Notes under the pieces: generated by a model
Database searches by the model: none
The model's input: the letters and a program-made list of their open reading frames with translations, nothing else
What the model was told of the DNA's origin: nothing
Assembly (NCBI GenBank): GCA_003222675.1
Contig: QHWT01000072.1
Span: 29,110-93,109 of the forward strand
Direction of reading: 5' to 3'
Length of the DNA: 64,000 bases
Source: Acidobacteriota bacterium
Lineage (GTDB): Bacteria; Acidobacteriota; Vicinamibacteria; Vicinamibacterales; 2-12-FULL-66-21
In this document: positions 18,206 through 62,663 of the stretch, in pieces
How positions within the stretch are numbered: position 1 is the stretch's first letter
Layout of the letters: each line of letters opens with the position of its first letter
Program-made: the position numbers and the translations under genes

Positions 18206-18958
18206 GTGACCACACCACACAAGGTGGCTGTCGTAACCGGGGCGGGCAGCGGCATTGGACGGGCGGTCGCGATCGGGTTGCTCGAGCAAGGCTATTCAGT
18301 CGTCCTGGCCGGTCGACGGGCGGAGCTGCTCGAAGAGACGGCGAAGGAGTCCGGCTCGTCGCGCACGCATGCGGTGCCTACTGATGTGACCGATCCGGAA
18401 TCCGTCCGCCGCTTGTTCCAGGCGGCGCGCGACAGGTTCGGACGACTCGACGTGCTCTTCAACAACGCCGGCATCAACGTGCCCGGCGTGCCGTTCGAAG
18501 AGGTGACCGTCGACCAGTGGAAGAGCGTGGTGGACGTCAACCTGACCGGCGTGTTCCTCTGCACTCAGCAGGCGTTCCTGCTGATGAAGACCCAGGACCC
18601 TCGAGGAGGACGTATCATCAACAATGGCTCGATCTCGGCACATGCGCCGCGCCCCAATTCCGCTCCTTACACGGCGACGAAGCATGCGATTACCGGCCTG
18701 ACGAAGTCGACCTCGCTCGATGGACGGAAGTTCGATATCGCCTGCGGCCAGATCGACATTGGCAATGCCGCCACGACGCTGGCCGCCAGGTTCGCAACCG
18801 GTGTGGTGCAGGCAAACGGCGAGATCGCCGTCGAGCCGCTCATGGATGTCGCGCACGTCGTCAACGCGGTTATCTATATGGCGAGCCTTCCGCTCGACGT
18901 GAACGTGCAGTTCCTCACGGTGATGGCCACCAAGATGCCGTTCGTCGGCCGAGGGTAG
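18206..18958 (+). CDS. SDR-family oxidoreductase
   Basis: A 250-aa ORF with [19 protein letters not shown], and a YTATKHA catalytic Tyr-x3-Lys. Confidence 0.85.
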
Positions 18959-18977
18959 CTCGCAGAGAGAGGTCGTA

Positions 18978-19544
18978 ATGGCAATCAAGTGGAAGGACAT
19001 CGACGAGGCGCTTCGGGAATCCACCAGCAGCAAGAAGCCCGTCCTCGCAGACTTCACCGCGGCACCTGCTTGAGGCGGATGCGTTCGGCTGGAAGCCGAA
19101 TCGTACGGCAACGAAGAGGTTGCCGCCTTCATCCAGCAGCAGTTCATTCCGACGCAGGCGCACATCAAGGAGCAGGGCACCGTATTTCACCGATTCGACG
19201 TCCTGTGGACGCCGACGGTGCTCATCCTCGATCCATCCGGCGTTGAGCGTCGCCGAAGCGAAGGCTACCTGCCTCGCGACGAATTCTTCGCGGAGCTGCA
19301 TCTCGGCCTCGGACGCGCGGCGTTCATGCGCAAGCAATGGTCCGAGGCGGAGCGGTTCTACGATGACGTCATCGAGCAGTTTCCACAGACGACCGGCGCA
19401 GCCGAAGCCGTCTACTGGCGCGGCGTCTGCCGGTACAAGCGGACCAACGATCATACGACGCTGCCGGTCGTGGCCGCCGAGTTCGAGCGGCAGTATCAGC
19501 AGACGTCGTGGGCGAAGAAAGCGTCGATCTGGCGGCGCGGTTGA
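18978..19544 (+). CDS. thioredoxin-fold protein with TPR-like C-terminus, read through an in-frame TGA at 19071 (candidate selenocysteine, or a nonsense mutation)
   Basis: The ATG at 18978 and the stop at 19544 are in the same frame as the track ORF 19218..19544. Translation gives MAIKWKDIDEALRESTSSKKPVLADFTAAPA-TGA-GGCVRLEAESYGNEEVAAFIQQQFIPTQAHIKEQGTVFHRFDVLWTPTVLILDPSG... The TGA sits where the first Cys of the CxxC motif is expected. Confidence 0.55.
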
Positions 19545-19685
19545 GGGCGAACGTCACGCGAGGGTATTGGCTGATCCCGCGCGAACGCGCGGAACACCGC
19601 TTCCCGGTCACCGGCGTCCATGCATGGTCATCGATTGCGGCACGAGGTCGCCGTCGCGTGATGAGCGTTGCGAACGAAAGGTACC

Positions 19686-20531
19686 CTATCTGCAGCACTC
19701 AGAGGTACAGCAACTCGTGACGTCAGGTTTGCGGGCGCGCACGAACGCGCTTGCGACCCGCCCGTCGATCGTCGGCGCGAGGCGGTCGACGTCGACGCCG
19801 GTCTCCATCAAAAACGCGCGCGCGTCCTCGACTTTGTAGACGCGCCACGGTTCGACGGTCACGTCCGCGAATCCCGCCGCCATCAGCCTCGAGGCGTACT
19901 CGGACTCCTCCAGCGCGCCGGCGATGCAGCCGACCCACAGCTCCATGCTGCGGCGAATGTCTGCGGGCACATCGCCGCGGACGATGACGTCCGAAACGGC
20001 AAAGCGGCCGTTCGGTTTCAGCACGCGAAATGCTTCGCGCAGCACTGCATCCTTGTCGGTCGACAGGTTGATCACGCAGTTCGAGATGATGACGTCGACC
20101 GAGTTGTCGGGCAGCGGAATAGCTTCGATGGTGCCTTTCAGGAACTCCACGTTCGTGGCGCCGGCCTTGCGCTGGTTCTCGCGCGCGAGCGCCAGCATCT
20201 CGTCCGTCATGTCGAGGCCGTACGCCTTGCCGGCGGGACCGACCCGCTTCGCGGAGAGCAGCACGTCGATGCCGCCGCCCGATCCGAGATCGAGCACCGT
20301 CTGACCGGGCTCGAGCGTGACCAGGGCCGTCGGGTTGCCGCACCCGAGTGAGGCGGTCACCGCATCGGCGGGCAAGCCATTGGTCTCCGCATCGGAATAC
20401 AGATTCGAGCTAATCGGGTCGCCGCAGCCGCACGCTGCGGGAGCGCAACAGCCGGAGTTCGCTGACGTCGTGGCAACGGCCGTCGCAATCGCACCGTATC
20501 GCTCTCGAATCGCCTGACTGATGTCCGCCAT
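19686..20531 (-). CDS. arsM: arsenite S-adenosylmethionine methyltransferase
   Basis: A 281-aa ORF with N-terminal Cys pairs (SGCCAPAACGCG), LGCGNP, and the SAM motif VLDLGSGGGIDV. It also shows VIISNCVINL and a Cys-rich C-terminus. Confidence 0.85.
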   Translation of the reverse strand: MADISQAIRERYGAIATAVATTSANSGCCAPAACGCGDPISSNLYSDAETNGLPADAVTASLGCGNPTALVTLEPGQTVLDLGSGGGIDVLLSAKRVGPAGKAYGLDMTDEMLALARENQRKAGATNVEFLKGTIEAIPLPDNSVDVIISNCVINLSTDKDAVLREAFRVLKPNGRFAVSDVIVRGDVPADIRRSMELWVGCIAGALEESEYASRLMAAGFADVTVEPWRVYKVEDARAFLMETGVDVDRLAPTIDGRVASAFVRARKPDVTSCCTSECCR

Positions 20532-60212: not shown

Positions 60213-62663
60213 ATGCTCGAGCCACTCCTTCGCGATCTGCGATACGCGGCGCGCATGCTCCGCAAGACGCCCGGCTTCACCGCCATCGCGCTCGTGACGC
60301 TCGCGGTCGGCATTGGTGTCAATACCGCGGTCTTCAGCGTCGTCAACGCGCTCCTGTTGAAGCCGCTTCCGTTCCCCGAGCCTGACCGCCTCGGCGCGGT
60401 CACCACGTTGTTCCGTTCGCCGCGAGGGCAAAGCGAACAGACCTCCGTCGACGGGAAGACATTCTTCGCGATTCACGACAATGCGACGACGGTTGCAACC
60501 GCGGTGTCATCCGGTGGACTTGGCGGTGGAATAAACCTCGTCGCAGGCGGCATGGCGGCCAACGTGGAGCAGCGCCGGGTCAGCGCGGGGTATTTTGGCG
60601 TTCTGGGTGTTGCGCCATTAGTCGGTCGCGAATTCACCGTGGATGAGGACCGCGAGGGAGGGCAGACCGCTGCCGTGCTCAGCCATGCGTTGTGGACGCG
60701 CGTATTCGGCGGCGATCCCAACATCATCGGCCGTGCGATCACGCTGCGGGGCGAGCCCTACACTGTTGTCGGCGTGATGCCGAATGGCTTCACGACGGGA
60801 GCGCCGACCGACGTGTGGACTCCCTTGCGTCCATCGACGAAAGGCGAAGGAGGTGGATCGAACTACGGAATGATTGCGCGGCTGCGCCAGGGAGCGACGT
60901 GGGAGCACGCGAATGCGGAGATCGCCCAGCTCGGTTCGGCGGCCGCCCGCGAGGGCTACAAACCTGACGTCACCGCGGTGTGCAGGTTGATTCCGCTTCA
61001 GCAGGATGAGACGTCGGAAATCCGCGAGCCGCTGCTCATGCTCTGGGGAGCGGTCGGCCTGGTGCTCCTCATCGCGTGCGTGAATCTCGCGGGACTGCTG
61101 CTGGCGCGCTCAGGCATGCGCACGCGCGAGATCGCGACGCGCATGGCCCTTGGCAGCGGACGTGGCGCGGTGGTCCGTCAGCTGCTCATCGAGAGCGGCA
61201 TGCTCGCTCTTGCCGGCGGTTCACTCGGCATCTCGGTCGGATGGGGCGTACTCGACGCGCTGAAGCGGCTCAGCACGAACGTGTTCCCAATCGGTTTCCC
61301 GATTCAGCTCGACGTACGCGTGCTCGCGGCGACGCTGATTATTGCGCTTGTCACGAGCGTGCTGTTCGGACTGGTGCCGGCGCTCCACGCGAGCCGCGTG
61401 AACGTCCAGAGCGCGCTCGCCGAATCGGGCACACGCGCGGTTGCGGGCGCCACGGCGCGCTGGCCGCGCCGGCTCCTCGTCGTCGGCGAGGTCGCGATGG
61501 GCGTCGTGCTGCTCGTCAGCGCGGGACTGCTCGTTCGTACTTTCGTGCACCTGCGCAGCCTCGATCCAGGCTTCGATCCTACGCACGTGATCACCGCATC
61601 GGTGTCGCTGCAGGACGCGCGTTACCAGGAAGTCACCAAGGTGGATCGGCTGTTTGGCGATACCTTGACGCGCATTCGCGAGGTGCCAGGCGTGCAGGCC
61701 GCGGGCGTTTCGCTCGGCCTTCCGTACACGCGGCTGCTGAATCTCGGGTTCCGACGGCTGGATGGGCCGCGCAGCGGTGACGAGGGGGGCATCACGAACC
61801 TGAGTTACATCACTCCGGGGTACATCGAAGCGCTGCGCATTCCCGTCCGCGAAGGCCGAAGCTTCACCGACCGGGATGCGGCAAGCGCGCCCGGAGTGGC
61901 GATCGTCAATGAAGAATTCGTGAAGAAGTACTACAAGGGACAGACCGTCGTCGGGCGGCGCATCAGTGTCGCGGGAGAGCGGGCGATCATCGGCATCGTG
62001 GGCAATGCGCGCGCGACCTCGTCGGGATTCTCCGATTACAGCCAGCCGCTCGTGACGCCACCTATCATTTATATTCCCGCGGCACAGACTACACCCGGAT
62101 TCCTGAAGCTCGTGCACACCTGGTTCTCTCCCTCATGGGTTGTTCGAGCGTCCGGCCCGTCGGAAACCGTGGCCGCGGCGATTCGGCAGTCGATGGCGAC
62201 CGTCGATCCGATGCTCCCTATTGCGCGGCTCGAAAGCATGTCGGACGTGCAGGCGGCCTCGCTCGCGTCGCAGCGTTTCATGATGGTGCTGGTGCTCGGT
62301 CTCGGCGGGGTCGCGCTGCTGCTCGCGGCAATCGGTATCCATGGGTTGATTGCGAGCTCGGTCTCCGAGCGCACACGAGAGCTCGGCATTCGTCTCGCGC
62401 TGGGCGCAACCACCGGCCAGGTCATGCGGACCGTCGTGCTGCCAGGCGTAGCCCTCGCGACGGCGGGGGTTGCGATCGGCAGCGTGGTCGCGTTCGCGGC
62501 CGTGCGGCTCATGCAGTCGTTTCTCTGGGGCGTCGCGCCTACGGATCCGATCACGTTTGGCGCGGTCATCGTCACGCTGCTGTCCGTCGCACTCATCGCG
62601 AGCGTGATTCCGGCGCTGCGCGTGCTGCGGCTGGATCCGGCCCTCACTCTGCGTGCGGAATGA
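60213..62663 (+). CDS. ADOP-family duplicated FtsX/MacB-type ABC transporter permease
   Basis: This is the ORF 60165..62663 trimmed to the ATG at 60213. It starts [60 protein letters not shown] and contains two MacB_PCD plus FtsX halves. Confidence 0.85.

Follow-up and report, generated by a model that had tools for sequence, protein, structure and literature searches.

An Acidobacteriota thioredoxin-fold gene with a tetratricopeptide-like tail, whose in-frame TGA very probably encodes selenocysteine

In contig QHWT01000072.1 of the Acidobacteriota assembly GCA_003222675.1, the reading frame of a thioredoxin-fold protein is interrupted by one TGA at the position of its first redox cysteine. 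Is this a gene broken by a nonsense mutation, a pair of adjacent genes, or an intact gene in which UGA is translated as selenocysteine (Sec)? We studied the gene within a stretch of 64,000 nucleotides, termed the window in what follows, whose positions are used throughout. The window is C61:29110-93109 of the genome, called G000 here, which comprises 7.16 Mb in 152 contigs and is 99.9% complete. Our answer, held with high confidence, is that the gene genuinely encodes Sec. The features that carry the argument are these:

18978..19544, plus strand: the probable selenoprotein gene, 188 codons plus the stop TGA at 19542-19544, encoding a thioredoxin-fold domain and then a helical tail resembling tetratricopeptide repeats (TPR)
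19071..19073, plus strand: in-frame TGA, very probably read as Sec, residue 32 and first position of a UxxC motif
19080..19082, plus strand: TGC encoding Cys35, the resolving cysteine in U-G-G-C
19084..19100, plus strand: putative core hairpin of the selenocysteine insertion sequence (SECIS), 17 nt beginning 10 nt 3′ of the UGA, in which a 7-bp stem UUCGGCU / AGCCGAA carries a GGA loop
19080..19105, plus strand: extended hairpin, with an extra 4-bp lower stem UGCG / CGUA and a bulged U at 19101

The mechanism that we propose is that of an intact selenoprotein gene, in which the ribosome would read the UGA at 19071-19073 as Sec. The 17-nt hairpin, which lies within the open reading frame (ORF) 10 nt 3′ of the UGA, would serve as the bacterial SECIS (bSECIS) element, and its GG-containing apical loop would recruit SelB with GTP and Sec-tRNA(Sec). 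The predicted product is a cytoplasmic protein of 188 residues that joins a thioredoxin fold, whose redox centre is U32-x-x-C35, to a TPR-like domain of five helices.

Between the ATG at 18978 and the stop TGA at 19542-19544 the sole internal stop is the TGA at 19071-19073, codon 32, and the frame is otherwise free of stops and frameshifts, just as a first-pass annotation made from the sequence had described it. Readthrough gives a 188-residue product in which the TGA context is ...ADFTAAPA-U-GGCVRLEAE..., that is, U32-G-G-C35. The same annotation had placed the TGA at the N-terminal redox cysteine of a thioredoxin fold, giving UxxC, and both this context and the Pfam thioredoxin matches described below agree. 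The N-terminus of the product aligns with the first Met of full-length homologs, and the Cys35 column holds Cys in 94/94 aligned genes (TGC in 66, TGT in 28). On both sides of the TGA the residues are conserved and the synonymous codons variable; codon 26, for example, encodes Ala as GCG in 29 genes, GCC in 27 and GCT in 23. This combination implies that both halves are translated in one frame, so that the codon profile of the aligned orthologs bears out the earlier suggestion that both are coding.

The TGA is conserved far beyond this genome. A six-frame search of 60 related genomes yielded 14 orthologs at 42-50% identity, and 13 of them have TGA in the identical column. A wider scan, with each GTDB species represented by one genome, gave 132 relatives from which 80 loci were kept; TGA stands in the same column in all 80. 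An evenly drawn sample of 401 genomes from the phylum contained the gene in 20 other genomes, 19 of which have a single in-frame TGA, counted irrespective of its column, including two at only 29-30% identity. Same-column TGA orthologs at 43-63% identity span many genera and several phyla. The TGA orthologs are mostly from Acidobacteriota (Pyrinomonadaceae, Blastocatellia, Bryobacteraceae, Terriglobales, Ca. Angelobacter and Korobacteraceae), with single TGA-form metagenome-assembled genomes (MAGs) labelled Binatia, Chthonomonadaceae, Verrucomicrobiia, Eisenbacteria and Nitrospirae, and the family is present in well over 100 soil bacterial species. An error in base calling is irrelevant here, because the same TGA is found in more than 110 other genomes.

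Among more distant homologs the column holds cysteine. With HMMER, 1.84 billion representatives were scanned in full and 2745 hits obtained; of the 51 full-length representatives among these (180-260 aa, 28-53% identity), 42 have Cys in the Sec column, as CxGC. For two closer Cys forms, P0031 and P0034, TGC was confirmed on their contigs. The check proposed in the first-pass annotation, whether homologs carry Cys or TGA at this column, thus returns Cys in most distant full-length proteins and TGA in nearly all orthologs.

The one ortholog from the related genomes that has no TGA, L035 (G044:C4:333196-333759, minus strand), has CGA (Arg) in its place, in the context AAPL-R-TGC. It retains the complete hairpin sequence CTCGGCTGGATGCCGAG, its ORF is otherwise intact, and genome G044 has selA. 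The CGA could have arisen recently from TGA, could mark a loss of function, or could be an error in the MAG consensus.

The window copy does not group with the copies from its own taxonomic family and genus (L024-L037; 42-50% identity, motif APM-U-SGC...VYPD). It falls instead in a large clade of Pyrinomonadaceae/Blastocatellia type (up to 63% identity, motif APA-U-GxC...SY). The split between these clades has support of 100/99, in a tree whose root was not inferred, and the window branch is long (0.7). Horizontal replacement or old paralogy could account for this placement. A sub-clade of three loci from uncultured Acidobacteriota (L115, L117 and L122) has the motif SAPH[AT]-U-GCC, with an extra Cys beside the resolving Cys and the core hairpin unchanged.

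The hairpin 3′ of the TGA supplies the second line of evidence. A six-bp stem, TTCGGC at 19084-19089 with GCCGAA at 19095-19100 around the loop TGGAA, begins at the 11th nt after the TGA, where the first-pass annotation had noted it; folding lengthens the stem to 7 bp through a U-A pair that closes a GGA loop. The minimum free energy (MFE) is -8.2 kcal/mol for the 17-nt core and -12.4 kcal/mol for the 26 nt of 19080-19105, and folding of a 66-nt stretch against shuffles gives z = -2.96. In a gap-free alignment of 60 nt around the TGA from 94 genes, RNAalifold finds one consensus helix, which is the 7 core pairs exactly.

Covariation and codon usage both indicate that this helix is under selection as RNA. 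Pair 20:36 of the alignment (19084:19100) is C-G in 52 genes, U-A in 31 and a mismatch in 11, and is never U-G. Pair 23:33 (19087:19097) is G-C in 89, G-U in 4 and A-U in one, the lone A-U being L104, where an Arg-to-Gln change (CAG) is matched by a change of GCC to GCT. Column 20 changes at least 11 times on the maximum-likelihood protein tree. Nine phylogenetically independent contrasts could be drawn on that tree, which includes the hairpin's own amino-acid columns; the partner column changed in the same way in about six and in the opposite way in none (sign test, p ~0.03). When the 3′ partners are slid by 1-3 columns, pairing falls from 91.9% to 19%-45%. The codons within the hairpin are frozen: Ala is GCT in 57/58, Arg CGG in 93/93, Leu CTG in 94/94, and a further Ala is GCC in 89 and GCT in 5, which is wobble-compatible. 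In the whole-gene codon profile this Arg CGG and Leu CTG are the sole synonymous codons with zero entropy, and conserved Arg, Leu and Ala columns outside the hairpin have 1.4-2.5 bits of codon entropy. Selection at the RNA level acts on the hairpin and is confined to it. The two Cys-form genes have lost precisely the invariant T21 and the loop G27 (their Leu is CTT), which fits a relaxed RNA constraint once the UGA is gone, in one lineage.

The published bSECIS model asks for a loop of 3-9 nt, a stem of 4-16 bp, and G in the first two loop positions (PMC13188914). It further specifies the loop pattern N1-G-[G/U]-N-N2 with N1 and N2 paired, a distance of 16-37 nt from the UGA and an MFE of -7.5 kcal/mol or lower (PMC13188914). 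The hairpin at 19084-19100 agrees with every one of these, with a loop of 3 nt (5 without the U-A closure), a stem of 7 bp and the apex U-GGA-A, and the earlier statement that it is compatible with published bacterial SECIS elements is thereby upheld. It resembles the fdhF SECIS of Escherichia coli in being a short hairpin within the ORF with G in its apical loop. In E. coli the minimal SECIS comprises the upper stem-loop, 17 nt long and placed 11 nt 3′ of the UGA; here the core is likewise 17 nt and lies 10 nt after it. The sequences are unrelated, however, and our hairpin differs in its GGA loop closed by U-A and in the bulged U on the 3′ side of the lower stem, which is poorly conserved. 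An Rfam scan of 18900-19700 at E up to 10 gave no match, and no Rfam 15 family fits the short hairpin.

Three further matches to the core turned up in a genome-wide motif search, none of them 3′ of an in-frame TGA. One near-copy, TTCGGCTGGTAGCCGAG, at G000:C139 ~60366-60400, follows an out-of-frame TGA by 14 nt and sits at the extreme end of an ordinary ORF, whose stop TAG falls within the loop. We rejected it as a second selenoprotein on account of the frame of its TGA; the resemblance is due to chance, or the element is a kind of terminator.

The genome has the apparatus for Sec insertion. Matches above curated cut-offs were found for selA (539 bits), selB (335 bits) and selD (343.9 bits, with one in-frame TGA), together with a tRNA-Sec with anticodon TCA identified by ARAGORN (Rfam RF01852, 61.4 bits, again above the curated cut-off). 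The first-pass annotation had put forward a candidate selenoprotein, to be given up if the genome had no Sec machinery, if homologs lacked Cys at the column, or if the hairpin was not conserved in TGA-containing orthologs. None of the three proved to be the case: selA, selB, a Sec-containing selD and tRNA-Sec are all present, the homologs are as described above, and the hairpin is kept in all 94 aligned genes, with covariation and frozen codons. The presence of selA says little about the gene in particular, since 55/61 related genomes have selA, carriers of the gene and others alike, and co-occurrence is therefore uninformative. TGA is also the commonest ordinary stop in the window, ending 39/60 long ORFs, and it terminates this gene as well; a reassigned genetic code is ruled out on those grounds.

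The selD gene (L001; G000:C36:78330-79259, minus strand) encodes a selenoprotein of its own, in which the Sec stands in the context ...ACAG-U-ASKL.... The folding 3′ of its TGA looks unlike the hairpin at 19084-19100, so the SelB of this genome presumably accepts diverse SECIS shapes.

These observations can be set against the other ways of reading the locus. One base change, TGC to TGA, would suffice to inactivate an ordinary CxxC thioredoxin-like gene, and the first-pass annotation, which saw several clearly broken genes elsewhere in the window, had kept such a recent nonsense mutation as a live alternative. The orthologs of 43-63% identity from several phyla, with TGA in the same column, exclude a simple change of that kind, and we find a pseudogene scarcely credible: 13/14 relatives and 80/80 other-species loci share the TGA column, 19/20 phylum-sample genomes have the single TGA, no further stop or frameshift has entered the frame, the protein is under purifying selection on both sides of the TGA, and the hairpin 3′ of it is conserved and covarying. 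Existing annotation points elsewhere, to two genes, namely an upstream ORF of 31 codons, terminated by the TGA, and a TPR protein encoded separately from an internal start. NCBI and many Joint Genome Institute (JGI) annotations take this form, most family entries being of 131-150 aa and starting 3′ of the TGA, and the window does contain an internal GTG ORF at 19218-19544. Such a split would sever the thioredoxin fold between strand 1 and helix 1 of the structural model. It is also at odds with a frame that is continuous across the TGA in every gene, with residues 20-31 (LLDFSAAPA) that are conserved as strongly as the rest, and with Cys-containing homologs that are single proteins of 186-215 aa; the truncated calls themselves scatter in length (108 to 155 aa), as annotation artefacts would. 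We judge two genes to be very improbable.

There is also the prospect that the UGA is read through with no Sec inserted, by near-cognate Trp or Cys or by a SelB-independent readthrough that the hairpin stimulates. The inserted residue cannot be told by computation, and in some copies the JGI pipelines translated the TGA as Trp, but that 'W' comes from a code-4 gene call on short contigs and is no evidence. Homologs have Cys at the nucleophilic position of CxxC, and a Trp there would leave the motif without redox function; the hairpin, down to the GG of its loop, conforms to the bSECIS model of SelB type; the full Sec machinery is retained in the genome; and TGA is a normal stop in the window. 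Readthrough of this kind is in our view unlikely, and translation of the UGA at 19071-19073 as Sec is the reading that we prefer.

What kind of protein would then be made? Pfam matches over residues 5-107 are to Thioredoxin_2 (PF13098, E 3.5e-10, 40.6 bits) and Thioredoxin_7 (PF13899, E 5.4e-10, 39.7 bits), both above the 27-bit cut-off, and PF03190 matches with 24.9 bits. TPR_6, TPR_2 and TPR_16 match over residues 104-142 below their cut-offs. An AlphaFold2 model built from a 75-sequence alignment has a predicted local distance difference test (pLDDT) score of 92.1 and a predicted template modelling (pTM) score of 0.88. In its thioredoxin fold a strand at 22-27 is followed by the motif at 32-35 and a helix at 38-43, and a strand at 80-84 comes right after the WTPT loop. 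Two further features belong here:

19206..19217, plus strand: W77-T78-P79-T80 loop of the thioredoxin fold, W77, T78 and P79 invariant and T80 nearly so among 75 homologs
19275..19532, plus strand: C-terminal helical, TPR-like domain, residues 100-185, five helices in the model

We take the WTPT loop, from general knowledge of the thioredoxin fold, to be the cis-proline loop that faces the active site. The fold, a UxxC between strand 1 and helix 1 and the conserved WTPT loop are what identify a thioredoxin-fold oxidoreductase, and all three are present, with the active-site loop modelled at low confidence. The tail helices span residues 100-117, 121-134, 140-156, 161-172 and 177-185; together with the sub-threshold TPR matches they agree with the TPR-like tail that the first-pass annotation had recognized. 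In sequence-profile comparison with the PDB the nearest entries to the N-domain are DsbD gamma (1uc7, E 3.6e-7) and a Bacteroides disulfide isomerase, and those nearest to the tail are the YbgF/CpoB TPR structures 2xev and 6g5s. The top Foldseek matches are DsbH (2ju5), E. coli YbbN/CnoX (3qou) and DsbD gamma (2fwg, TMt 0.71), and thioredoxins also match the N-domain. Only 3qou and the Salmonella thioredoxin-like protein 3qdn match both domains over the full length (197-199 columns, E ~1e-5). The N-terminus is hydrophilic and without a signal peptide, which suggests that the protein is cytoplasmic.

From this architecture the protein may be a selenol/thiol-disulfide oxidoreductase whose helical tail binds partner or client proteins. 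We propose this combination of redox activity with client binding only tentatively, by analogy with proteins of similar build.

Several points weigh against the interpretation given here and are collected in this paragraph. The case for Sec insertion, expression and activity is indirect, and the functional proposal is an argument from analogy. The distance from the UGA to the loop, 16-17 nt, is the lower limit of the bSECIS model, so that the spacing is tight. The lower stem is weakly supported: three of its four pairs are kept across the 94 genes, and 19082:19103 is broken in 51/94. The evidence that loss of the UGA brings loss of the SECIS is thin, as it comes from two related Cys-form sequences. 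Active-site residues 31-36 have pLDDT below 50, and their geometry is of low confidence. For the function in particular, the 197-column alignment to 3qou has a template modelling score (TM-score) of 0.40 and a root-mean-square deviation of 11.3 Å, YbbN is absent from the sequence-profile hits up to E 1, and there are no conserved neighbours to guide assignment.

The neighbourhood can be described briefly. A possible ribosome-binding site was read from the sequence:

18966..18972, plus strand: purine run AGAGAGG, possible ribosome-binding site, 5 nt 5′ of the ATG

The gene begins 19 nt after the stop of a same-strand short-chain dehydrogenase (SDR) gene at 18206-18958, with which it is possibly co-transcribed in this genome; the pairing with an SDR gene was not seen beside orthologs. 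On the 3′ side lie a convergent methyltransferase gene (arsM-like) and then one for an ArsR-type regulator. The first-pass annotation had seen in arsM and arsR a metalloid and redox context. The two genes are there, but the link does not hold. Clustering of the ORFs on either side of 94 loci gave no neighbour family shared by more than 7 of them, and none of the shared families included the window's neighbours. The arsM/arsR context is therefore incidental, and we ruled out a link to metalloids or arsenic.

How does the protein compare with known systems? In NCBIfam release 20.0 no model reaches its cut-off for it. The TsoB rhodanese/DsbD fusion-like model (NF045694; UxxxxU) was rejected at 36.7 against 805 bits, with only the model's C-terminal thioredoxin domain matching. 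The VPGUxxT thioredoxin-like models (NF041383 / NF041382) were rejected likewise, at 25.9 against 275 bits for type 2 and 17.4 against 350 bits; the motif here is APAU. A review of 2026 tabulates 119 prokaryotic selenoprotein families or subfamilies, with no thioredoxin-TPR protein among them (PMC13188914), and our literature searches for a thioredoxin-TPR selenoprotein or for selenoproteins of Acidobacteriota found no description. The UxxC thioredoxin-fold entries in Table 1 of that review include Sec-thioredoxin, Sec-glutaredoxin, a 'thiol:disulfide interchange protein' of PF13098, DsbG-like, SaoT and others (PMC13188914). Our protein shares with them the fold, Sec as first residue of UxxC, Cys homologs and an in-ORF SECIS just after the UGA, but none as listed has a C-terminal TPR-like helical domain, which this protein has. 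The nearest entry is the 'thiol:disulfide interchange protein' (UxxC, Geobacter WP_011366075.1), with which it has its best Pfam domain, PF13098, in common; that family is listed without a TPR domain, and the comparison is one of domain and motif.

CnoX/YbbN is a thioredoxin-plus-TPR chaperedoxin, in which holdase activity and redox protection are united (PMC10998233, PMC6282202, PMC8129009). Our protein has the same order of domains, the thioredoxin fold at the N-terminus and the helical TPR domain after it, and is likewise cytoplasmic, by prediction. It differs in length (188 against ~284 aa) and in domain arrangement, as the low TM-score reflects, and the CnoX active site is SQHC in E. coli (PMC10998233) as against UxxC here. 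TPR_20, the Pfam domain that is part of the CnoX/YbbN architecture, gave no hit in this protein. With no profile match to E 1, the TM-score of 0.40 and no TPR_20, we do not assign it to CnoX/YbbN, and it may work in a CnoX-like way at most by analogy. The closest relatives of the N-domain in both sequence and structure are DsbD gamma, DsbH, Thioredoxin_7 and DUF255 (Thioredox_DsbH). Those are periplasmic or membrane-tethered electron-transfer domains, or the N-domains of large DUF255 proteins, whereas the present protein is small, stand-alone and apparently cytoplasmic, with a TPR tail and, very probably, Sec.

Its UxxC thioredoxin fold with in-ORF SECIS is thus of an already known kind, and the present case extends it with no new principle. 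Whether it represents an uncatalogued selenoprotein family we regard as evenly balanced. The same holds for the fuller proposal of an uncatalogued, chaperedoxin-like thioredoxin-TPR family with a UxGC centre, which would be essentially obligately Sec in its core clade and occur in soil Acidobacteriota with scattered MAGs of other phyla. In most redox selenoprotein families Sec forms are rare, and in earlier surveys they were tied mainly to anaerobes (PMC1794560); in the close clade of this family, in contrast, almost all members are of the Sec form, and the soil lineages concerned are mostly aerobic. If the proposal is right, these proteins would be among the commonest selenoproteins of aerobic soil bacteria other than FdhA and SelD, and the family could be one reason why soil lineages retain Sec machinery. 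It would add a thioredoxin-TPR architecture to the bacterial selenoproteome and suggest that soil Acidobacteriota, abundant and largely aerobic, make use of selenium. Its uniform 17-nt SECIS, with natural compensatory variants, would also be a handy model for SelB recognition beyond Proteobacteria and Firmicutes.

The family is present in databases under other guises. JGI gene calls made under code 4 on short contigs put Trp at the TGA, giving 188-aa database proteins with 'W' at the site (P0004-P0017, L133). NCBI and other pipelines (P0028-P0051) report products of 131-150 aa that start 3′ of the TGA, the NCBI records being of 150 aa, and these truncated entries are named 'thioredoxin fold domain-containing', 'tetratricopeptide repeat', 'TolA-binding' or 'BamD' proteins. 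A family profile would correct hundreds of such gene models.

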